This document shows, in pieces, positions 1,130 through 12,356 of a DNA stretch of 12,356 bases. The stretch comes from a virus. The notes beneath the pieces are model-generated. The model worked only from the letters and a program-made list of their open reading frames with translations. It was not told the DNA's origin and ran no database searches. The DNA lies in UHGV virus genome UHGV-0294568; one strand, 5' to 3'. Position 1 is the stretch's first letter; each line of letters begins with the position of its first letter. Position numbers and translations under genes: made by a program.

Positions 1130-1468
1130 ATGAACAAAACGATTTTATTCTGCACGATTATTGCCTTAACAGGATGTAAATCTTTGGATTACGTAAAATC
1201 CGGCAAGCCTGTAATGGAAGGTAATTCATTAAAAAATATTGATGAATTGTCAGGCTGCATATCCAGACAATGGGCTGGTAATGGAACACCTATAACATCC
1301 ATTCCTATTGAGAATGGGGTAAGCCTTTTAGTTCCACAGGCTATGGGTGGGTATGATGTTGTGCTTGATATCAAAAAAGCAGGAAATGGCAGTAGTTTTA
1401 CTCTTTATGAACGCGTACCAGCATTAACGCCAAAAATTTTTGCTGATAGTGTTAATGCATGTAAATAA
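1130..1468 (+). CDS. Small lipoprotein of unknown function (moron inserted between I and J)
   Basis: ATG at 1130 gives MNKTILFCTIIALTGCKS, a signal peptide with lipobox LTGC. The track's upstream start at 1118 is TTG. The gene is visibly AT-rich relative to the flanking tail genes and has its own terminator. Lambda has no gene at this position. Confidence 0.6.
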   Translation: MNKTILFCTIIALTGCKSLDYVKSGKPVMEGNSLKNIDELSGCISRQWAGNGTPITSIPIENGVSLLVPQAMGGYDVVLDIKKAGNGSSFTLYERVPALTPKIFADSVNACK

Positions 1469-1534: not shown

Positions 1535-4500
1535 ATGGGTAAAGGTAGCAGTAAGGGGCATACCCCGCGCGAAGCGAAGGACAACCTGAAGTCCACGCAG
1601 TTGCTGAGTGTGATCGATGCCATCAGCGAAGGGCCGATTGAAGGTCCGGTGGATGGATTAAAAAGCGTGCTGCTGAACAGTACGCCAGTGCTGGACAGTG
1701 AGGGGAATACCAATATCTCCGGTGTCACGGTGGTGTTCCGGGCCGGTGAGCAGGAGCAGACACCGCCGGAGGGATTTGAATCCTCTGGCTCCGAGACGGT
1801 GCTGGGTACGGAAGTGAAATACGACACGCCGATCACCCGGACCATCACGTCGGCAAACATTGACCGACTGCGTTTTACCTTCGGCGTGCAGGCACTGGTG
1901 GAAACCACCTCAAAGGGGGACAGGAATCCGTCGGAAGTCCGCCTGCTGGTTCAGATCCAGCGTAATGGTGGCTGGGTGACGGAAAAAGACATCACCATTA
2001 AGGGCAAAACCACCTCGCAGTATCTGGCCTCGGTGGTGGTGGGTAACCTGCCGCCGCGCCCGTTCAATATACGGATGCGCAGGATGACGCCGGACAGCAC
2101 CACAGACCAGCTGCAGAACAAAACGCTCTGGTCGTCATACACCGAAATCATCGATGTGAAACAGTGCTACCCGAACACGGCACTGGTCGGCGTGCAGGTG
2201 GACTCGGAGCAGTTCGGCAGCCAGCAGGTGAGCCGTAATTATCATCTTCGCGGACGCATTCTGCAGGTGCCGTCGAACTATAACCCGCAGACGCGGCAAT
2301 ACAGCGGTATCTGGGACGGAACGTTTAAGCCAGCATACAGCAACAACATGGCCTGGTGTCTGTGGGATATGCTGACCCACCCGCGTTACGGCATGGGTAA
2401 ACGTCTTGGTGCGGCAGATGTGGATAAATGGGCGCTGTATGTCATCGGCCAGTGTTGCGACCAGTCGGTGCCGGACGGTTTTGGCGGCACGGAGCCGCGC
2501 ATCACCTGTAATGCCTGGCTGACCACACAGCGTAAGGTGTGGGATGTTCTCAGTGATTTCTGCTCGGCGATGCGCTGTATGCCGGTATGGAACGGGCAGA
2601 CGCTGACGTTCGTGCAGGACCGGCCATCAGATAAGGTGTGGACCTATAACCGCAGTAATGTGGTGATGCCGGATGATGGCGCGCCGTTCCGCTACAGCTT
2701 CAGCGCCCTGAAGGACCGCCATAATGCCGTTGAGGTGAACTGGATTGACCCGGACAACGGCTGGGAGACGGCGACAGAGCTTGTGGAGGATACGCAGGCC
2801 ATTGCCCGTTACGGTCGTAACGTCACGAAGATGGATGCCTTTGGCTGTACCAGCCGGGGGCAGGCACACCGCGCCGGGCTGTGGCTGATTAAAACGGAGC
2901 TGCTGGAAACGCAGACCGTGGACTTCAGCGTGGGTGCTGAAGGGCTTCGCCATGTACCGGGCGATGTCATTGAAATCTGCGATGATGACTATGTCGGTAT
3001 CAGCACCGGTGGTCGCGTGCTGGCGGTGAACAGCCAGACCCGGACGCTGACGCTCGACCGTGAAATCACGCTGCCATCCTCCGGTACCACGCTGATAAGC
3101 CTGGTTGACGGAAGTGGCAATCCGGTCAGCGTGGAGGTCCAGTCCGTCACCGACGGCGTGAAGGTAAAAGTGAGCCGTGTTCCTGACGGCGTTGCCGGAT
3201 ACAGCGTATGGGGGCTGAAGCTGCCGACGCTGCGCCAGCGCCTGTTCCGCTGCGTGAGTATCCGTGAGAACGATGACGGCACGTATGCCATCACCGCCGT
3301 GCAGCATGTACCGGAAAAAGAGGCCATCGTGGATAACGGGGCGCACTTTGACGGCGACCAGAGCGGCACGGTGAATGGTGTCACGCCGCCAGCAGTGCAG
3401 CATCTGACCGCCGAAGTCACCGCAGACAGCGGGGAATATCAGGTGCTGGCGCGCTGGGACACGCCGAAGGTGGTGAAGGGCGTGAGCTTCCTGCTCCGTC
3501 TGACCGTAACAGCGGATGACGGCAGTGAGTGGCTGGTCAGCACGGCCCGGACGACGGAAACCACTTACCGCTTCACACAACTGGCTCTGGGGAACTACAG
3601 GCTGACAGTCCGGGCAGTAAATGCATGGGGACAGCAGGGCGATCCGGCGTCGGTATCGTTCCGGATTGCCGCACCGGCAGCGCCGTCGCGGATTGAGCTG
3701 ACGCCGGGCTATTTTCAGATAACCGCCACGCCGCATCTTGCGGTTTATGATCCGACGGTACAGTTTGAGTTCTGGTTCTCGGAAAAGCGGATTACCGATA
3801 TCAGGCAGGTTGAAACCACAGCACGCTATCTTGGTACGGCGTTGTACTGGATAGCCGCCAGTATCAATATCAAACCGGGCCATAATTATTATTTTTACGT
3901 TCGCAGTGTGAACACCGTTGGCAAATCGGCATTCGTGGAGGCTGTTGGTCAGCCGAGTGATGACGCATCCGGCTATCTGGATTTTTTCAAAGGCGAGATA
4001 GGGAAAACCCATCTGGCTCAGGAGCTGTGGACGCAGATTGATAACGGTCAGCTTGCGCCTGACCTGGCTGAAATCAGGACATCCATTACGGATGTCAGCA
4101 ATGAAATCACACAGACCGTCAATAAGAAACTGGAAGACCAGAGTGCGGCAATTCAGCAGATACAGAAGGTTCAGGTTGATACAAATAATAACCTGAACAG
4201 CATGTGGGCTGTGAAGCTGCAGCAGATGCAGGACGGACGCCTTTATATCGCGGGTATTGGTGCCGGTATTGAGAACACCCCTGACGGCATGCAGAGTCAG
4301 GTGCTGCTGGCGGCAGACAGGATTGCGATGATTAATCCTGCGAATGGCAACACAAAGCCGATGTTTGTTGGTCAGGGCGATCAGATATTCATGAACGAAG
4401 TGTTCCTGAAACGCCTGACGGCTCCCACCATTACCAGCGGCGGTAATCCTCCGGTATTTTCCCTGACACCGGACGGGCGGCTGACGGCGAAAAATGCCGA

Positions 4501-5032
4501 TATCAGCGGTAACGTGAATGCGAACGCCGGGACGCTCAACAATGTCACGGTAAATGAAAACTGTACGATTAAGGGCATGCTGGAGGCGACTCAGGTCAGA
4601 GGTGACTTCGTTAAAGCTGTATCCAAATCATTCCCGAAACAGGCTGGTACGTGGGGTAACACGGAAACACCAAACGGGACGGTTACAGTCACCATCAGCG
4701 ATGATCATAACTTTGACCGTCAAATCATTATTCCACCCATTATCTTTAACGGAATAGCGTATAGCGATCCGGGAAGTGGTAATAACCCGGGAGGTACAAG
4801 ATACACGGGTTATGGTTTTGAAGTTCGCAAAAACGGTGTATTAATCGCATCCAGAGAAACTAAAGGGGCCATTCCCGGTAGCTACAGTGCGGTTATTGAT
4901 ATGCCGAGTGGCAGGGGAAGCGTCACTCTGGAGTTTAAGGTTTTCCATAAAGGCAATCAGTGGGCAGGTAATATCACCGACTGTACGGTGATTGTGACCA
5001 AAAAAGCTGCTTCCGGCATCAGTATTCGTTGA
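1535..5032 (+). CDS. J: Host specificity protein J (tail tip central fibre)
   Basis: The 1165-aa ORF starts [54 protein letters not shown], as I recall for lambda J. Size and position after I match the lambdoid order. GGAG lies 8 nt upstream of the ATG. Confidence 0.95.
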
Positions 5033-5053
5033 AGTTGTTATAACCCATATAAG

Positions 5054-5077
5054 GGCACCAGAAATGGTGCCTTTTTT
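5054..5077 (+). terminator. Rho-independent terminator after J
   Basis: GGCACC (5054-5059), loop AGAAAT, GGTGCC (5066-5071), then TTTTTT (5072-5077). Confidence 0.6.
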
Positions 5078-5101
5078 ATTGCAGAAAAGCGAGAGGTAAT
5101 T

Positions 5102-5701
5102 ATGCGTAAACTTTATGCCGCCATTTTGTCCGCAGCCATTTGTCTGGCCGTATCCGGTGCGCCTGCATGGGCATCTGAACATCAGTCCACGCTGAGCGCG
5201 GGGTATCTTCATGCCCGGACCAACGTTCCCGGCAGCGATGATCTGAACGGGATTAACGTGAAATACCGTTATGAGTTTACGGACACACTGGGGCTGGTGA
5301 CGTCATTCAGCTATGCAGGAGACAAGAATCGCCAGCTGACCCATTACAGCGATACCCGCTGGCATGAGGATTCCGTGCGTAACCGCTGGTTCAGCGTGAT
5401 GGCGGGGCCGTCTGTACGTGTGAATGAATGGTTCAGCGCGTATGCGATGGCAGGCGTGGCTTACAGCCGTGTGTCGACTTTTTCCGGGGATTATCTCCGC
5501 GTAACTGACAACAAGGGAAAAACGCACGACGTGCTGACCGGAAGTGATGACGCTCGCCACAGTAACACCTCTCTGGCGTGGGGAGCTGGCGTGCAGTTTA
5601 ACCCGACCGAATCCGTGGCCGTTGATGTCGCTTATGAAGGCTCCGGCAGTGGCAACTGGCGCACTGACGGGTTCATCGTGGGTGTCGGTTATAAGTTCTG
5701 A
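5102..5701 (+). CDS. lom: Lom outer membrane protein (Ail/Lom/PagC/Rck family beta-barrel)
   Basis: The 199-aa product has a signal peptide (MRKLYAAILSAAICLAVSGAPAWA) and ends in the aromatic residue F (GFIVGVGYKF), typical of OMP beta-barrels. It is at the lambda lom position between J and stf, with AGAGGT 5 nt upstream of the ATG. Confidence 0.85.
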   Translation: MRKLYAAILSAAICLAVSGAPAWASEHQSTLSAGYLHARTNVPGSDDLNGINVKYRYEFTDTLGLVTSFSYAGDKNRQLTHYSDTRWHEDSVRNRWFSVMAGPSVRVNEWFSAYAMAGVAYSRVSTFSGDYLRVTDNKGKTHDVLTGSDDARHSNTSLAWGAGVQFNPTESVAVDVAYEGSGSGNWRTDGFIVGVGYKF

Positions 5702-5727
5702 TTAGCCAGGTAACACAGTGTTATGAC

Positions 5728-5754
5728 AGCCCGCCGGTTCAGGCGGGCTTTTTT
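5728..5754 (+). terminator. Rho-independent terminator after lom
   Basis: AGCCCGCC (5728-5735), loop GGTTCA, GGCGGGCT (5742-5749), then TTTTT (5750-5754). Confidence 0.65.
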
Positions 5755-5765
5755 GTGGGGTGAAT

Positions 5766-8700
5766 ATGGCAGTAAAGATTTCAGGTGTACTGAAAGACGG
5801 TGCAGGTAAACCGGTACAGAACTGCACAATCCAGCTGAAAGCAAAACGTAACAGCACCACGGTGGTGGTGAACACGGTGGCATCTGAAAATCCGGATGAA
5901 GCCGGGCGTTACAGCATGGACGTTGAGTACGGTCAGTACAGCGTTATTCTGTTGGTGGAAGGATTCCCGCCGTCACATGCCGGGACCATCACCGTGTATG
6001 AAGATTCCCGACCCGGTACGCTGAATGATTTTCTCGGTGCCATGACGGAGGATGATGCCCGTCCGGAGGCACTGCGCCGCTTTGAACTGATGGTGGAAGA
6101 GGTGGCGCGTAACGCGTCCGCAGTGGCGCAGAACACAGCAGCCGCGAAGAAGTCAGCCAGCGATGCCGGCACATCAGCCCGTGAGGCGGCAACCCGTGCG
6201 ACTGATGCTGCAGGCTCAGCACGTGCAGCCAGCACGTCAGCCGGACAGGCCGCGTCGTCGGCTCAGTCAGCGTCTTCCAGCGCAGGAACGGCATCAGCAA
6301 AGGCTACTGAAGCATCAAAAAGTGCTGCCGCTGCAGAGTCTTCAAAAAGCGCGGCAGCCACCAGTGCCGGTGCAGCGAAAACGTCGGAAATGAATGCCGC
6401 AGCATCACAAAAATCTGCGGCCACATCTGCATCCACCGCGACCACGAAAGCGTCAGAAGCTGCCACCTCAGCCCGGGATGCGTCGGCTTCAAAAGTGGCG
6501 GCAAAATCATCAGAAACGAGCGCTGCCTCGAGCGCCGGCAGTGCAGCTTCCTCGGCAACGGCAGCAGGAAATTCCGCGAAGGCCGCAAAAACGTCTGAGA
6601 CGAATGCGGATAACAGCGCACAGGCGGCAGCAGACTCACAAACTGCATCGGCAAACTCCGCGACAGCAGCCAAAAAATCAGAAACCAACGCGAAAAATAG
6701 TGAGTCAGCAGCAAAGGTCAGCGAAACCAACGCTAAAGCGTCAGAGAACAAGGCGAAAGAATATCTCGACAAGGTCGGGGGACTCGTCAGCCCGATGACG
6801 CAATACGATTGGCCTGTTGTTACTGCTAGTGAGTCTCTTTACATCAAGATCGCGAAACTTTCCGATCCTGGAACCAGCAGAAGTCATGTAACGCTAATGG
6901 TTACTAACGCTGGTAACTACGGCTCCCCTTACGGAAACATTGACTTTATCGAGATCTCGGCGCGCGGTCTGCCTTCTTTGCTTAGTGCGGATAATGTTTC
7001 TCGTCATCTGAGTATACGCCGCTTAGGGTCAACCGGGCTGACCGATAACAACCAGATGCGTTACGGCCTGGTTAAAGGTGACGGCTTTATTGAGGTTTGG
7101 GCATTCCAGGGTGCGTTTATTAACGACGCAAAGGTTGCGGTGCTGGCGCAGACAACACTAAACACAGAATTATACATTCCAGACGGATTTGTTAAGCAAA
7201 CCGCCGCGCCTTCTGGATATATTGAAGGCAACGTTGTAAGGATTTACGACCAGGTAAACAAGCCGACTAAAGCAGATTTGGGCCTTTCTAATGCTATGCT
7301 TATAGGCGCTTTTGGTCTTGGCGGTAGCGGTCTTGTTTTGGATGGTAAAATGACCGATAAGGAACTACTACAAGAGCTAAGGGCGAAAGGTGGGTGTTTC
7401 TGGAGGTCAGGAAAACCAACAGGTAGCGAATCAACAATTTTCAGCCACGGTTCTGGTATATTCTCGCGGTGCGGCGATACGTGGTCAGCTATTAATATCG
7501 ATTACGAAAGCGGTAGAGTAAAGATTTACTCTAGTAACGATAATAGACTCAACAATGGTACTTTTAACATAAATGAGCTATACGGAACCAAATACAAGCC
7601 GTCGAAATCGGATGTTGGACTTGGTAACGTAACTAACGATGCGCAGGTGAAAAAATCCGGCGACATTATGTCAGGTAATCTGTCGATCACTAAAGCAACA
7701 CCTTCACTATTCCTGCGTTCAAAAAGTGGAACCGCCCATGTATGGTTCCAAAATGAGGATCAGTCGGAACGCGGCGTTATTTTTGCGCCTACAAATACTG
7801 ATACGCTTGGCGAAGTTCACATCAGGGCTAAAAACGCAAAAGGTCAATCAAGTGGTGATTTTATTGTTCGTCACGACGGGATGGTTGAAGCCCGTGATCT
7901 CACATTAGCGGGTAAAACTAAAGGCGCAAAAGCAGAATTTGCAAACACAAGCACTAGATCCGATGATACTACGGTAAGCATAAAAGGATCTCAGCATACT
8001 CCTCTGGTTTTAACGCGCAACAACACAATTAAAAATTTATCCATTGGGTTTAAGGTTGATGACGTTGACCAAAAATATCTCGGCATATACGGTGACGGTG
8101 ATTTGTATTTTGGTGGTTATTCTGACCACACAAAAAACAGCAAAGTAATTACACAAGCAATACTCGATAGCGGGGTAACGGTAGGCGGCAAAACAACATT
8201 TTCTGACCTTGCCACATTTAACGCAGGTATGTCTGGGCCTATCGAGCCGGAAGCCATTGAAGGCATGACTATCGATCTTAATGACCTTATCATTAAGTTC
8301 ACGGATAAAGGTTCAGTTAAATACTATCACTGCAAAACTGCCGGAGGCGGTTCGAATATTACCAATAAGCCTGACGGCGTAGGCGGCAACTTTTTGCTTC
8401 GTGTAGAGTCAATTCGTAAGGTTAGTGATTCAGATTATATAAACATGCAAACGCTGATTAGCGGCGACAAAGGACGCGTGCATGTTCGTTTTGTTACTAA
8501 TGGTAATTGGACAGCATGGAGCGAGCATGTTGTTTCAGGATGGAATCAGGATGTGACCGTCAGGTCGTTAACCTCGACGACTCCATCAAAATTAGGCGGC
8601 GGGCGTGTTGATGTGCTGGGGAGTACGTCAGATTACAGTAGTATGAATTGTGCTGTGCGCGGTGTTGATAGCACTGGAACCAATTCGGCGTGGTCAGTAG

Positions 8701-9527
8701 GTACATCGGAAAACACGGGAAAAATGTTGTGCCTTAAAAACCACAGAAGCAGCGCTCAAGTGCTGTTAAATGGCGATGATGGCGCGGTGCAACTACTAAG
8801 CGGTACTGTCAACGGTGCTACAGCACAGGCGCTAACCATCAACAAAGATGAGGTTAACTCAACTGCTGATTTAGTAATTAGAAAACAGTCAGGGACTGGC
8901 AATCGTTTTGTTTTAAAGAACGCAGGTAATGCAGAACTACCGTTTAACATCAGTGTATGGGGTTCAAGTGATCGACAAAACGTTTTTGAGGTTGGAACGT
9001 CTGCTGCGTATCTGTTTTATGCGCAAAGAACGCCAGCAGGCCAGTTGTTTGATGTAAATGGCGCTATTAATTGCACAACGCTGAATCAGTCATCAGACCG
9101 CGACCTTAAAGACGATATTCTCGTTATCAGCGACGCGACGAAAGCAATCCGCAAAATGAACGGGTACACCTACACGCTCAAGGAAAACGGCCTTCCTTAT
9201 GCTGGCGTTATTGCACAGGAAGTAATGGAGGCGCTACCGGAAGCCGTAGGATCGTTTACTCGTTACGGTGAAGAATTGCAGGGTCCGACCATTGATGGCA
9301 ACGAGCTACGCGAAGAAACGCGTTACCTCAATGTTGATTATGCGGCGGTGACTGGTTTACTTGTCCAGGTCGCCCGTGAAACAGATGATCGCGTTACCGC
9401 GCTGGAAGAGGAAAACACAACGCTACGTCAAAATCTGGCAACAGCAGACACCCGGATCAGCACTCTGGAAAATCAGGTAAGCGAACTGGTTGCACTTGTC
9501 CGGCAGTTAACAGGAAGCGAACATTGA
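5766..9527 (+). CDS. stf: Side tail fibre protein, mosaic: lambda Stf-like N-terminus, Ala/Ser/Thr-rich repeat block, divergent distal region, C-terminal intramolecular-chaperone (peptidase S74-like) domain
   Basis: ATG at 5766 gives MAVKISGVLKDGAGKPVQNCTIQLKAKRNSTTVVVNTVASENPDEAGRYSMDVEYGQYSV, as I recall for lambda Stf; the track start at 5760 is GTG. The C-terminus has SSDRDLKDDILVIS ... GYTYTLKENG followed by a heptad-like coiled coil (LEEENTTLRQNLATADTRISTLENQVSELVALVRQL), as in self-cleaving chaperone domains of endosialidase-type fibres. GC drops after about 6780. Confidence 0.85.
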   Translation: MAVKISGVLKDGAGKPVQNCTIQLKAKRNSTTVVVNTVASENPDEAGRYSMDVEYGQYSVILLVEGFPPSHAGTITVYEDSRPGTLNDFLGAMTEDDARPEALRRFELMVEEVARNASAVAQNTAAAKKSASDAGTSAREAATRATDAAGSARAASTSAGQAASSAQSASSSAGTASAKATEASKSAAAAESSKSAAATSAGAAKTSEMNAAASQKSAATSASTATTKASEAATSARDASASKVAAKSSETSAASSAGSAASSATAAGNSAKAAKTSETNADNSAQAAADSQTASANSATAAKKSETNAKNSESAAKVSETNAKASENKAKEYLDKVGGLVSPMTQYDWPVVTASESLYIKIAKLSDPGTSRSHVTLMVTNAGNYGSPYGNIDFIEISARGLPSLLSADNVSRHLSIRRLGSTGLTDNNQMRYGLVKGDGFIEVWAFQGAFINDAKVAVLAQTTLNTELYIPDGFVKQTAAPSGYIEGNVVRIYDQVNKPTKADLGLSNAMLIGAFGLGGSGLVLDGKMTDKELLQELRAKGGCFWRSGKPTGSESTIFSHGSGIFSRCGDTWSAINIDYESGRVKIYSSNDNRLNNGTFNINELYGTKYKPSKSDVGLGNVTNDAQVKKSGDIMSGNLSITKATPSLFLRSKSGTAHVWFQNEDQSERGVIFAPTNTDTLGEVHIRAKNAKGQSSGDFIVRHDGMVEARDLTLAGKTKGAKAEFANTSTRSDDTTVSIKGSQHTPLVLTRNNTIKNLSIGFKVDDVDQKYLGIYGDGDLYFGGYSDHTKNSKVITQAILDSGVTVGGKTTFSDLATFNAGMSGPIEPEAIEGMTIDLNDLIIKFTDKGSVKYYHCKTAGGGSNITNKPDGVGGNFLLRVESIRKVSDSDYINMQTLISGDKGRVHVRFVTNGNWTAWSEHVVSGWNQDVTVRSLTSTTPSKLGGGRVDVLGSTSDYSSMNCAVRGVDSTGTNSAWSVGTSENTGKMLCLKNHRSSAQVLLNGDDGAVQLLSGTVNGATAQALTINKDEVNSTADLVIRKQSGTGNRFVLKNAGNAELPFNISVWGSSDRQNVFEVGTSAAYLFYAQRTPAGQLFDVNGAINCTTLNQSSDRDLKDDILVISDATKAIRKMNGYTYTLKENGLPYAGVIAQEVMEALPEAVGSFTRYGEELQGPTIDGNELREETRYLNVDYAAVTGLLVQVARETDDRVTALEEENTTLRQNLATADTRISTLENQVSELVALVRQLTGSEH
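6111..6760 (+). repeat. Low-complexity imperfect tandem repeats inside stf (Ala/Ser/Thr-rich, recurring AAK(T/K)SETNA-like units)
   Basis: Protein residues about 118-335 are almost entirely A/S/T/K/E, with recurring units AAKTSEMNAAAS, AAKTSETNADNS, AAKKSETNAKNS and AKVSETNAKAS. The track's antisense ORFs here are composition artefacts. Confidence 0.6.
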
Positions 9528-9710
9528 TATCCTTCAAGCTCTGAAGGAGGCTGTTCCCGGTACGTTCAGACTGTTGTTGAGCTGGAGATCGCAACGGAGG
9601 AAGAAACCTCATTGCTGGAAGCCTGGAAAAAGTATCGGGTGTTGCTGAACCGTGTTGATACATCAACTGCACCTGATATTGAGTGGCCTGCGGTCCCTGT
9701 TATGGAGTAA
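9528..9710 (+). pseudogene. tfa: 3' remnant of a tail fibre assembly gene, in frame immediately after the stf stop codon, with no start codon of its own
   Basis: The 60 codons after the stf TGA (9525-9527) read [60 protein letters not shown], ending at TAA 9708-9710. The [26 protein letters not shown] tail matches what I recall of enterobacterial Tfa C-termini. Confidence 0.5.
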
Positions 9711-9724
9711 TCGTTTTGTGATAT

Positions 9725-9758
9725 GCCGCAGCAACTTGTCATGGCAGGATACTGCGGC
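9725..9758. other. Inverted repeat (7-bp stem, 21-nt loop) downstream of the tfa remnant; weak terminator candidate
   Basis: GCCGCAG (9725-9731) and CTGCGGC (9752-9758). The loop contains GGCAGGATA. The downstream sequence TGATTTGTGAATTT is only moderately T-rich. Confidence 0.3.
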
Positions 9759-9893
9759 TGATTTGTGAATTTAAATAGTGTGTTTATTGCTTTATATATA
9801 AAGGATTTAATGGATTACATATCTATGATATCCCTGAAATGTCCTCTTCAAGCTCTTTTACTGATTTCGCAATTTTAAATTTAAATTTTCTCT

Positions 9894-11192
9894 CTATTTC
9901 ACTATTGCTAAGTTTTTTTCATTCTCTTTCCCTATCCACATAGAAACAATTTCTCGTTTCTGAGATATATGTAGATTGTCAAAGTTAGGTATGTATTTAA
10001 AAGTCTCCGCTCTACCCCTGCGGAGTTCATAGAAAGTTTTAATCAAAGACTTTGGTTTTATTTCTGATGAAAGGCCGAATCGGCGGATAAGATTATTGAT
10101 CGTATGATTAACAGCTCGAAGTTGAGCTGTTGACGTTATTTGTGAGAAGTACGATACCCATCCCAATCGTTTACCTTCAAACACACATCCCGTAATTCTA
10201 AGATTTAGTTTCCACTGACAATATGCAACAGCTCGTTCTTTATCGCGCTTATTTTTAGCTTGTAGTAGAGCGTGTCTATATGCAGTAAAAATTTTTGCTA
10301 AGGATGACTCAAATCTAAGAATGCTCTCATGTTTTATCAATAATTCTCGATTTTTTATGTGGTAGCCCAAAAAGTTGAAACTTTCATCCAAGCTGCCTAC
10401 TTTGGATTTTGAGTTCTCTTCATTTAATGGATGTGGGTTTAAATTTAATGATTGAAGCTTATCAATGATATGAGAAGCTATTTTTGTTGCTTGATATTTT
10501 GGTGTTAAAATAAGAATGTCATCAACGTATCGCATGTACCATATGTCATGCATTTTATTGATTTCATCATCGAAATTAGATAGTGATATTTCAGCTAAAA
10601 TGTTTGATATCGCTAATCCCTGAGGTACTCCTCTGGTATTATTAGGGATACCTTTGCTTCCTGTGGTTCCACTTACAGTAGGCACGATTAATGATGATGT
10701 TATTAACTGTCTAATTTCTTTTTTTCTAATTTTATTTTTTATTGCATTAATTATCAATTTATGTTCAATTGAAGGATAGAAACTTTTAAGATCTATTTTT
10801 GCATATTCAGCATATAGACTGTTGTTTAATGCTTCTTTCAATGAGTCAATTACTGTATGTGGTAGTTTTAATCTGGACTTAGGATATATTTCCGTAAGGC
10901 ATTCACAGAGAGCTCTAAGAGTAATTCTGTCCCTAGCAGTTGGTATGGAAATCTGTCTGGGTGTAGAGTTAGCGCCTTTAGATATTAATTTTTCTTTATA
11001 TGCTGTAAATTTGTAATTGCCAGAATTAACCTTTTCAAAAATGAAAGTGATCTCATTTTTTATTGTCAAATCAAGTTTTGATGGGCGAATCCGATCTATG
11101 CCAATCGCTCCTGATTCTTTGATTTTTTCAGAGTATACTTTTAGAAGATTTTTTTTCGAGAATGACTTTTTAAAAATTCTGCTTGCAGTCAT
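9894..11192 (-). CDS. Reverse transcriptase, compact single-domain type (fingers-palm-thumb), family unassigned
   Basis: RT motifs are readable in order: GIDRI; RQISIPTARDRITLRAL; IDLKSFYPSIEH; GVPQGLAISNILAE; YMRYVDDILIL; FNFLGYHI; and a thumb-like RLGWVSYF. The track start at 11198 is TTG; the first ATG is at 11192. The 5' end overlaps the upstream membrane-protein gene by 23 nt. Sampled lines are about 22-33% GC, against about 57% in one J line. Confidence 0.85.
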   Translation of the reverse strand: MTASRIFKKSFSKKNLLKVYSEKIKESGAIGIDRIRPSKLDLTIKNEITFIFEKVNSGNYKFTAYKEKLISKGANSTPRQISIPTARDRITLRALCECLTEIYPKSRLKLPHTVIDSLKEALNNSLYAEYAKIDLKSFYPSIEHKLIINAIKNKIRKKEIRQLITSSLIVPTVSGTTGSKGIPNNTRGVPQGLAISNILAEISLSNFDDEINKMHDIWYMRYVDDILILTPKYQATKIASHIIDKLQSLNLNPHPLNEENSKSKVGSLDESFNFLGYHIKNRELLIKHESILRFESSLAKIFTAYRHALLQAKNKRDKERAVAYCQWKLNLRITGCVFEGKRLGWVSYFSQITSTAQLRAVNHTINNLIRRFGLSSEIKPKSLIKTFYELRRGRAETFKYIPNFDNLHISQKREIVSMWIGKENEKNLAIVK

Positions 11193-11721
11193 AGTCAATC
11201 CAAAGATATATTAATGGGAGTATATAAAGTGCGGCAGTAATAAATATTCGAAGTAATATCCATAAAATAACAATTATTTTTTCTTTTTGTGTGGGGATCC
11301 TCGTCTTAAGTCCAACTTGAGTTACCCTTGAAATTTTATCATCTATGTCACGGTGATTCTCAACCTCATTGAGCAAATTAAAATATTTTTCTTTCTGTTC
11401 AAGAGATAACTGTTGACTGGTGGTAATGTCAAAATAGAGTCGCTGTAGTGCAATATAATTCCTTCTCATGGCTATTGCTCGACCACGAAAATCTAGGTTA
11501 GATACGATCAGAGAAATACCCAGTAGAGCCACTGAAAGTATCGCCGCAACGACATCTGTATTATCTCCTAGAACCTTTGGAAATCGCAACGTTACAATTG
11601 AAAGTACCGCACTCAATATAGCATACCAAACGAGGATAAATTGAGAGTGTTTTTCAAGCCATTCTAGTCGATGGTGCGCTTGGATACGTGCTTTATATGT
11701 AAACCAAATATTGTCATGCAT
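11170..11721 (-). CDS. Multi-pass membrane protein (2TM N-terminal module plus long C-terminal hydrophobic segment), candidate effector partner of the RT
   Basis: The 183-aa product has hydrophobic segments at about residues 27-45 (FILVWYAILSAVLSIVTL), 56-74 (VVAAILSVALLGISLIVS) and 148-175 (IIVILWILLRIFITAALYILPLIYLWI), with a basic helix between. AAGGA lies about 6 nt upstream of the ATG. It shares AT-richness and strand with the RT. Confidence 0.55.
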   Translation of the reverse strand: MHDNIWFTYKARIQAHHRLEWLEKHSQFILVWYAILSAVLSIVTLRFPKVLGDNTDVVAAILSVALLGISLIVSNLDFRGRAIAMRRNYIALQRLYFDITTSQQLSLEQKEKYFNLLNEVENHRDIDDKISRVTQVGLKTRIPTQKEKIIVILWILLRIFITAALYILPLIYLWIDYDCKQNF

Positions 11722-11743
11722 AAAAGATCCTTTTTAAAAGCGG

Positions 11744-11873
11744 AAGGGGCAGGATATATTGGAACCGTTGAACATCCTGCCCGGCAGGATCAGTGAGCAT
11801 AAGCTCAACAGTAAAATATTACTGTTCATTATCAGAGCCGCCCTTGCATGCGCAAGAGGAAAAACCTGCCCCA
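11744..11873 (-). ncRNA. Candidate structured non-coding leader RNA upstream of the membrane-protein/RT genes (hypothetical)
   Basis: On the - strand, GGGGCAGG near the 5' end (complement of 11865-11872) and CCTGCCCC near the 3' end (complement of 11746-11753) bracket about 110 nt. Inside are the hairpins CTTGC-GCAT-GCAAG and AACAGTAA-TATT-TTACTGTT and the 17-bp palindrome. No ORF is present. No folding or homology search was done. Confidence 0.2.
11774..11790. promoter_or_regulatory. Perfect 17-bp palindrome ATCCTGCC-C-GGCAGGAT in the leader of the membrane-protein/RT operon
   Basis: Read directly: 11774-11781 ATCCTGCC, 11782 C, 11783-11790 GGCAGGAT. A third copy of GGCAGGAT at 11748-11755 can pair with 11774-11781 across an 18-nt loop. 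Confidence 0.3.
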
Positions 11874-11880
11874 TCCCTTT

Positions 11881-11912
11881 GAATTATTACAATTTAATGA
11901 TCTTAAAGTCAA
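11881..11912 (-). promoter_or_regulatory. Putative sigma70-like promoter for the leader/membrane-protein/RT transcript
   Basis: The - strand reads TTGACT (complement of 11907-11912), a 15-17 nt spacer, then TGTAAT/TAATAA (complement of about 11884-11892). Only a pattern match. Confidence 0.25.
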
Positions 11913-11943
11913 TACAAGTGAATGGTGTCCAGAGATGATGAAC

Positions 11944-12192
11944 TTAATGAACAAACCACTCGTCAGCAGACTCCCAGGTATCTTTCAGAGTCTCCTGAAC
12001 AAAAGTTTTAGCTGAATCTTTATCAGCGGTGCGCGTAACAGAAAGGCCATCGTTGCTGGTGGCTTTTACGATCACTTCTACATCGTCATAACGTTTACTG
12101 ATGCGTCGGGTTAATTCTTCCTTTAACGCATCCACAGCACCGGTTGGCATTTTAGTCATTTTTTCTTTGGCTATGCAGATTTCAATACGCAT
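11944..12192 (-). CDS. dinI: DinI-like protein (DinI family, RecA/SOS modulator)
   Basis: The 82-aa product [35 protein letters not shown] ... LSV ... [17 protein letters not shown] matches the DinI pattern as I recall it (MRIE..IAK...P.GA.DAL..EL.RRI ... TWESAD.WF). GGGGA lies about 7 nt upstream of the ATG. Confidence 0.75.
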
Positions 12193-12285
12193 AAAAGTCC
12201 CCTACACTGTATTTGTATGGGTCTTCCCTTGTTGTGGTGGCTGAAGGCATGATAATGGTGTATTTAATCGCCAGAGGTCACCGCC

Positions 12286-12356
12286 ATGGACGAAAAGTCC
12301 CTCTACGCTCATATTCTCAACCTGTCCGATCCGTGGCAGGTAAAGTCCCTTTCTCT
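12286..12356 (+). CDS. 5' end of an ORF truncated by the window edge; possibly an ISL3-like transposase N-terminus (tentative)
   Basis: ATG at 12286 with AGAGGT 8 nt upstream; translation MDEKSLYAHILNLSDPWQVKSLSL. The hL.L.DpW.V pattern resembles N-termini of ISL3-family transposases as I recall them, but 23 residues is too short to be sure. Confidence 0.3.
   Translation, partial: MDEKSLYAHILNLSDPWQVKSLS

Follow-up and report, generated by a model that had tools for sequence, protein, structure and literature searches.

DRT10, of which the locus considered here is very probably a copy, is a bacterial anti-phage system in which a reverse transcriptase (RT) works together with a membrane protein and a non-coding RNA (ncRNA). 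RTs of its UG17 clade were found to be strongly associated with SLATT proteins, and a defence role was predicted for them, in a study that also cited a prophage RT-SLATT locus making sbcB essential (Mestre et al. 2022, PMC9226505). The system was subsequently named DRT10, and three Escherichia coli homologs were shown to protect against phages, protection being dependent on the catalytic site of the RT, on SLATT and on an ncRNA whose gene precedes that of SLATT (Tang et al. 2025, PMC12632851). For Eco3DRT10 the same authors established that deletion of SLATT or conversion of YVDD to YVAA abolishes defence, that the RT primes from its C-terminal Ser456 and repeatedly copies a 9-nucleotide (nt) template located 3' of stem-loop SL5 in a telomerase-like A-B-A' arrangement, and that scrambling SL5 abolishes repeat synthesis. 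Work on a second system, of subtype UG17-A, confirmed the three-part module, identified SLATT first and coupled to the RT as the predominant gene order, and reported that transcription of the ncRNA does not depend on that of the protein genes, that cells lacking SbcB do not survive DRT10, and that the system is triggered by an SSB-like phage protein (Sanchez-Nieto et al. 2026, 10.64898/2026.04.29.721553). Here a locus is described on the minus strand of a 12,356-nt stretch of viral DNA (UHGV virus genome UHGV-0294568, hereafter the window) that very probably represents an Eco3-like DRT10 of UG17 subtype A, carried as cargo by a lambdoid prophage, in a copy probably rendered inactive by a frameshift in its RT gene. 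By descent it is a DRT10 member, and as sequenced it is defective.

The protein-coding part of the locus consists of a gene for a SLATT_5 membrane protein (11170..11721, minus strand, 183 amino acids (aa), preceded by an AAGGA ribosome-binding site at a distance of 8 nt) and, following it, the truncated reading frame of a UG17/DRT10 RT (9894..11192, minus strand, 432 aa from its ATG). An alternative RT start, an upstream TTG, would extend the latter to 9894-11198 and 434 aa, beginning MTMTAS.... An earlier note, made from the sequence of the window, had described two minus-strand genes with a 23-nt overlap, as the coordinates of the open reading frames (ORFs) confirm, and hydropathy likewise bears out its account of the 183-aa protein, which has two hydrophobic segments near its N-terminus (residues ~27-46 and ~55-76) and a long one towards its C-terminus (~147-175). 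In full, however, the DRT10 locus of the window occupies 9823-11912 on the minus strand and is wider than first delimited (9894-11721), the essential upstream ncRNA template having been missed.

Profile searches place the RT in UG17, and not among the RTs of retrons, group II introns or diversity-generating retroelements (DGRs). The PADLOC profile RT_UG17 covers protein residues 1-425 with 500.8 bits (E 7.7e-151) against 129.9 bits (E 4e-38) for Drt3a, the next-best PADLOC profile, Pfam returns RVT_1 only (E 6.5e-21), and scores against the NCBIfam Drt3a and Drt2 models lie below their cut-offs. Its partner exceeds the curated SLATT_5 cut-offs of both Pfam (100.1 bits against 29.5, E 1.3e-28) and NCBIfam (136.2 bits against 60, E 8.5e-40), and matches the PADLOC profile RTasSLATT at E 1.5e-56. 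Given the strength of these matches (RT_UG17, RVT_1, SLATT_5, RTasSLATT), the two ORFs are not a product of chance. The YVDD motif (nt 10518-10529, residues 222-225) is invariant across RT homologs, and QGLAISN is also present. The overlapping SLATT-RT arrangement is repeated in 26 of the 27 homologous loci scanned, and the exact SLATT sequence was found on at least 1000 contigs. The PDB contains no DRT10 RT and no relative of the window's SLATT protein, and a fold search with the RT model returned only generic bacterial RTs (G2L4, GsI-IIC, DRT9, DGR, DRT2). The view of the earlier note that this is an RT-based anti-phage system with a membrane partner is supported. It is not a new candidate, as the description of the UG17 and SLATT pairing dates from 2022 and its characterisation as DRT10 from 2025-2026, nor is the placement of the effector before the RT odd, this order being normal for the UG17 family (Sanchez-Nieto et al. 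2026).

Judged by its sequence, the locus is a close allele of the experimentally tested Eco3DRT10. The RT of the latter (OKX54664) is listed at NCBI with 458 aa, including two spurious N-terminal residues, and has 456 aa when corrected; the assignment is made because this 458-aa entry fits both the TTG-start MTMTAS... ORF of the window and the 456-aa family length. Table S1 of Tang et al. (PMC12632851) includes E. coli loci encoding the same protein, and the published template, CAAUGAUUC-CAAU, recurs unchanged at nt 107-119, its reported position, in an E. coli allele whose RT is 97.4% identical. Eco3DRT10 and the window share gene order, overlapping SLATT and RT genes, the 456-aa family length, the misannotated 'MT' extension and the terminal ...EEDISGIS, as well as the length and stem-loops of the ncRNA and the position of the template (nt 107-119). 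They differ in the template itself, which is CAAUGAUUC in Eco3DRT10 and CAACGGUUC in the window (U110C, A112G), and in the repeat, GAATCATTG as opposed to a predicted GAACCGTTG. Unlike Eco3DRT10, moreover, the window has A and A' elements that differ at the fourth base, a competing 8-nt register, and an RT frameshifted at codon 427 and devoid of Ser456. The UG17-A DRT10 of Escherichia sp. E3659, which makes tandem-repeat complementary DNA (cDNA) and is SbcB-dependent, resembles the window in its ncRNA-SLATT-RT order, coupled genes, separate ncRNA promoter and basal stem SL1, but belongs to another lineage, with an RT gene of 1338 nt (445 codons), an ncRNA of 143 nt and the 7-nt repeat AGTAATA, whereas the lineage of the window is the Eco3-like one with 456 aa and a 9-nt template. 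Of the features that define DRT10, the window contains the UG17-clade RT, an intact YVDD, a coupled SLATT_5, a structured ncRNA and an A-B-A' loop 3' of SL5, and lacks the C-terminal priming serine (Ser456 in Eco3DRT10).

Both the ncRNA and its promoter reside in the 222-nt spacer between SLATT and dinI. The sigma-70-type promoter (11883..11912, minus strand; TTGACT, an 18-nt spacer, and AATAAT preceded by TG) is the top-scoring promoter-like site within 9500-12356, agreeing at 10 of 12 positions in addition to the TG, and its sequence is identical across all four aligned E. coli alleles; transcription is predicted to start at about 11876. The ncRNA (11740..11876, minus strand, 137 nt in Eco3DRT10 numbering) comprises a basal stem, SL1, around four stem-loops, SL2-SL5, and a single-stranded template loop, and has a minimum-free-energy fold of -58.5 kcal/mol (z = -5.1 relative to shuffles). 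Internal pairs of that fold involving the template loop were left out of the structural model, as they conflict with the published single-stranded template. A covariance model (R1) built from four E. coli alleles produced full-length matches at the same position upstream of SLATT in 27 homologous loci (E 1e-10 to 1e-34) from Xenorhabdus, Photorhabdus, Buttiauxella, Pseudomonas, Stutzerimonas, Stenotrophomonas, Bordetella and a proteobacterial metagenome-assembled genome, with RT identities of 50-83%. In the ensuing alignment 96.7% of cells are paired and both-side (compensatory) changes occur in 24 of 37 pairs, with such pairs present in every one of the five helices; none of 500 shuffled controls attained these values, and sliding the partners lowers pairing to ~50%. 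The alignment was fitted to the model, so that these pairing counts lean towards structure, although the signal is large nonetheless. Rfam 15 holds no family for the DRT10 ncRNA. Just 5' of the template lies SL5 (AUCCUGC-CGG-GCAGGAU, nt 87-103; 11774..11790, minus strand), a stem-loop that covaries in homologs and is proposed to be the template-boundary element. The ncRNA spacer of the window is 100% identical in at least 12 complete genomes, and 75 fall in the band of at least 99%.

The core of the template loop (11758..11770, minus strand) comprises the A-B element CAACGGUUC at nt 107-115 (11770-11762) and the A' element CAAU at nt 116-119 (11761-11758). In Eco3 numbering the window reads SL5 (87-103), GUU, C107-AACGGUUC-115 and C116-AAU-119, and its A-B-A' pattern is CAAC-GGUUC-CAAU, where A and A' are identical at three of four bases and the fourth would form a G:U pair. 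An allele with exactly the published Eco3 template and A' (CAAUGAUUC-CAAU) is found in E. coli strain 510016, whose ncRNA differs from that of the window by U110C and A112G only; an ST131-type allele has the same template as the window, and this variant appears to be the commoner one in E. coli. Since A can vary at its fourth base, which determines the product (Tang et al., PMC12632851), a window-type template is predicted to yield (GAACCGTTG)n, that is, the 9-nt unit 5'-GAACCGTTG-3' in tandem. The same two substitutions also give rise to GUUC-AACG-GUUC, a perfect pattern whose period is 8 nt and over which the 9-nt repeat is favoured. Of 29 homologous ncRNAs, 25 retain the (U)CAA...(U)CAA register where Eco3 has it, and only a few show the GUUC register.

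The steps by which DRT10 operates were established experimentally on alleles nearly identical to that of the window, rather than on the window itself. In intact copies the 137-nt ncRNA, expressed from its own promoter, is bound by the RT, which primes DNA synthesis on the hydroxyl of its own C-terminal Ser456 and copies the short A-B template just 3' of SL5. The new cDNA end next re-anneals at the downstream A', which on the window template would involve three Watson-Crick pairs and one G:U, and with each further cycle a long single-stranded tandem-repeat DNA is built up, covalently joined to the RT, in a manner resembling telomerase. SLATT is needed for defence, its part as a toxic effector responding to the cDNA being a proposal of the literature only.

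It is the RT gene that sets this copy apart. Its poly-A tract (9913..9919, minus strand) is A7 here and A8 in intact alleles, a 1-nt deletion that shifts the reading frame. Compared with strain 6409, which has A8 and a 456-aa RT, the window RT is identical to residue 426, after which it continues with six foreign residues, NLAIVK, to a stop at 432 (...GKENEK-NLAIVK; ...GKENEKNLAIVK before the stop codon). The 30 residues lost by the frameshift at codon 427 are still encoded, out of frame, down to position 9823, and this orphaned RT 3' end (9823..9912, minus strand) specifies LSNSEIERKFKFKIAKSVKELEEDISGIS and a stop, that is, the C-terminal helix and the terminal Ser456 (...KELEEDISGIS). The earlier description of a 432-aa RT with palm motifs therefore holds as to the motifs, YVDD and QGLAISN being present, but not as to completeness, since the protein is truncated by the A7 frameshift and has 456 aa when intact. 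Intact E. coli RTs end ...EEDISGIS, nearly all homologs measure 454-457 aa, and ...KELEEDISGxS is conserved, its ...ELEEDISGxS part down to 59% identity, with the terminal serine found in 23 of 23 full-length sequences of one alignment and invariant in 30 of 30 of another. In an AlphaFold2 model of a 99%-identical cluster representative (mean pLDDT 86), residues 430-452 form a confidently predicted helix, with a flexible tail beyond it. Because the window has lost this helix and Ser456, and because the S456A mutation abolishes both cDNA synthesis and defence in Eco3DRT10 (Tang et al., PMC12632851), its RT is most likely inactive, and the window copy most likely cannot prime cDNA and no longer defends. 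Its ncRNA and SLATT genes are intact.

Several points weigh against this picture of an Eco3-type DRT10 silenced by frameshift. The Eco3-allele call is based on protein length, N-terminus, template sequence and numbering, and not on the nucleotide sequence of Eco3DRT10. The mode of action of SLATT is only proposed in the literature, and this includes the cDNA-controlled membrane disruption that had been put forward for the window and is counted here as not supported. The competing 8-nt register may operate, in which case the product would be (CGTTGAAC)n, and the predicted 9-nt repeat is uncertain to that extent. As for the frameshift, the exact 432-aa protein is recorded on one 16-kb contig, from a fragmented assembly of >1100 contigs, and strain 6409 has A8 while being otherwise identical to the window over 3797-12218. 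These last two observations favour an alternative in which the locus works fully as an Eco3-type DRT10, A8 and a 456-aa RT being what the strain truly has, and A7 is a sequencing or assembly error, homopolymers being the classic location of indel errors. The full-length 456-aa protein occurs on 732 contigs versus one for the 432-aa form of the window, and of the 188 complete E. coli genomes in which the cassette occurs none has the exact A7 tract, every listed row being one base longer. Against an error stands the fact that A7 is the only indel across 12.2 kb in the comparison with strain 6409, which argues that the sequence is not error-prone generally. Moreover, the window and contig SKFA01001128.1 both have A7 despite 15 differences in gpJ, and a second 432-aa allele (97% identical) with the same truncation and NLAIVK tail is present on nine contigs from NCBI, ENA and Logan (contigs, not strains), indicating that the change from A8 to A7 occurs or recurs in nature. 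On balance the deletion is probably a real mutation, and a sequencing or assembly error is the less likely explanation, though one that retains appreciable weight.

Contig SKFA01001128.1, the 16-kb contig just mentioned (assembly GCA_008917305.1), is the only public record with the same truncated RT. Its 15 differences from the window all fall in gpJ (2994-3796), the rest being identical, which suggests either that the strains are related or that repeats caused the lambdoid prophages to be assembled differently. The contig also carries an ISL3-family transposase (2936-4156 of the contig) between dinI and the prophage integrase, just past the end of the window.

A real A7 need not imply simple loss, and the allele could instead represent a low-expression or switchable state in which full-length RT (with K427N) is restored rarely, tuning or phase-varying a costly defence, either through -1 ribosomal frameshifting on the in-phase A_AAA_AAC or through slippage of RNA polymerase or of replication on the A tract. 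The zero-frame codons GAA-AAA-AAC do place an X_XXY_YYZ heptamer in phase, and a -1 shift would read CTT AGC..., the full-length frame; the A7 state is found in two different alleles; and DRT10 is costly, being lethal without SbcB, with another natural knock-out known in the form of IS1 in SLATT. However, no stimulatory structure is evident downstream in the AT-rich sequence past the heptamer, and the rarity of the A7 variant, with zero exact matches in those 188 complete genomes, fits sporadic loss better than a maintained switch. In E. coli A_AAA_AAC is also far less shifty than A_AAA_AAG, and A7 is shorter than the length giving efficient transcriptional slippage. Such a state is accordingly improbable, and the same low probability attaches to the broader idea that the A8 tract of Eco3-type RT genes is a contingency switch, A7 silencing a costly SbcB-dependent system and reversion or -1 frameshifting giving back an RT able to prime. 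An RT that is truncated and dead for priming, but still binds the ncRNA, might have a regulatory role.

That the locus is instead a retron, with an RT, an msr/msd RNA and a two-transmembrane (TM) effector as in Ec48 producing multicopy single-stranded DNA (msDNA), is scarcely credible, for although the RT is compact and adjoins a two-TM protein, homologs are called 'retron-type reverse transcriptase' in some databases and the NCBIfam model retron_St85_RT matches weakly, its 58.3 bits compare with a cut-off of 235 and with 501 bits for UG17, Rfam searched at E <= 1 returns no retron msr family, the ncRNA is the DRT10 five-stem type with an A-B-A' loop rather than msr/msd and has no suitable flanking inverted repeats, and the tested near-identical allele yields protein-primed tandem repeats and not msDNA; the low RT score, the absence of msr/msd in Rfam and the differing RNA architecture were the grounds for rejection. 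The likeness to Ec48-type retrons drawn in the earlier note lies in the presumed control, by an RT product, of a membrane effector causing abortive infection, and these retrons differ in RT clade, in their msr/msd RNA and 2'-OH-primed branched msDNA, in an effector that is not SLATT_5 and in gene order. A mobile group II intron RT or a DGR RT is just as implausible, since a group_II_RT_mat match of 144.6 bits and nearest solved folds that include group II, group II-like and DGR RTs are offset by cut-offs of 300 for that model and 23 for GIIM (14.8 bits here), by the lack of group II intron RNA domains in Rfam, which together with the sub-threshold RT score led to rejection of the intron, by the lack of any template repeat/variable repeat (TR/VR)-type pair in 9400-12356 (direct repeats only 34 nt at 71% and 16 nt at 88%), on which the DGR was rejected, and by the occurrence of the same SLATT-RT-ncRNA organisation in 27 species. 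The longer of these repeats, imperfect and 71% identical, is located at 9788-9821, just 3' of the full-length RT stop, and at 11689-11722, at the SLATT start codon; a role as insertion scars bracketing SLATT-RT was considered and rejected, the similarity at this identity being probably due to chance.

Other systems share features with the locus. DRT9 (UG28) likewise has a class 2 UG RT, is protein-primed and relies on a structured ncRNA containing a template loop, and it ranks among the best structural hits for the RT model, but it primes from internal tyrosines, copies a poly-U template into poly-dA, forms hexamers and has no obligatory SLATT; the window RT scores 69 bits with the PADLOC Drt9 profile versus 501 for UG17. 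DRT3 (UG3 and UG8, an ncRNA and an accessory SLATT) shares the class 2 UG RT and repeat cDNA, and its Drt3a profile is the second-best match, yet it employs two RTs, makes poly(dT-dG) and has SLATT as an accessory rather than the core effector. Telomerase resembles DRT10 in synthesising repeats from a short internal template with a structured 5' boundary and A-B-A' realignment, as argued by Tang et al., while DRT10 differs in being protein-primed, in its size of ~456 aa, in being bacterial, and in serving immunity rather than chromosome-end maintenance.

The genomic setting is that of prophage cargo. The cassette has a GC content of 0.35, lower than that of gpJ (0.56) or of the tail fibre (0.49), and along the window GC is 0.29-0.38 over 9600-11600 compared with 0.45-0.63 in the tail genes, in agreement with the earlier proposal of an AT-rich, horizontally acquired cassette. 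It is carried by 188 of 5426 complete E. coli genomes, always on the chromosome, whereas the INPHARED phage collection contains no match to it. In all four E. coli contexts examined it is situated between a dinI-like gene and tail-fibre or tail-fibre-assembly genes, and the host lambdoid prophages occupy differing integration sites (dusA, aspS/yecD, prfC); the same cargo position at different sites supports the view, already expressed in that note, of a cargo hotspot at the tail-fibre end of lambdoid prophages. In the window the slot is flanked, outside the system, by the DinI-like gene (11944..12192, minus strand; Pfam DinI 1.1e-19) and at its other edge by a remnant of a tail fibre assembly gene without its N-terminus (9576..9710, plus strand), mapped from the annotation of strain 6409, where the region is 100% identical. 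A sub-threshold Rfam match to IS009 (9467-9667, plus strand; 95 bits against a gathering threshold of 117, E 7.6e-22) overlaps the 3' end of the tail fibre and part of this remnant (~9576-9710). In E. coli strain 510016, whose allele has the exact Eco3-type template, SLATT is split by IS1A (3723-5051 of the stretch examined from that strain), and this insertion is a second kind of natural DRT10 knock-out, consistent with the reported cost.

Elsewhere in the window, a 112-aa AT-rich ORF (1130-1468, plus strand; GC ~0.38) with a lipoprotein-type signal, MNKTILFCTIIALTGC, lies between a tail assembly gene (416-1057) and gpJ (1535-5032) and looks like a moron; it matches PHROG 914, of unknown function, and has no Pfam hit. 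A gene for an Ail/Lom outer-membrane beta-barrel (5102-5701, plus strand; Pfam Ail_Lom 2.9e-121) separates gpJ from the tail fibre, at the site classically taken by the lom moron of lambda. The tail-fibre ORF is intact (5760-9527, 1255 aa), whereas the RefSeq annotation of strain 6409 (8239-12000 of the stretch compared) splits it into an incomplete N-terminal pseudogene and a C-terminal coding sequence; with the DNA identical from window position 3797 onward, this split looks like an annotation artefact.

For annotation, the name DRT10 should be given to an RT domain protein and a SLATT domain protein found beside the tail-fibre genes of prophages. The ncRNA, at present unannotated, should be included, and RTs of 432 aa should be marked as truncated. 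What makes the family notable is that a bacterial enzyme of 456 aa adds tandem DNA repeats in the manner of telomerase and is coupled to a membrane effector. To this the window adds a natural template variant, with a different predicted repeat (GAACCGTTG) and a competing 8-nt register, and a natural knock-out, in which homopolymer slippage has removed exactly the priming residue. Together with the IS1-disrupted SLATT found elsewhere, the A7 knock-out fits the fitness cost reported for DRT10.

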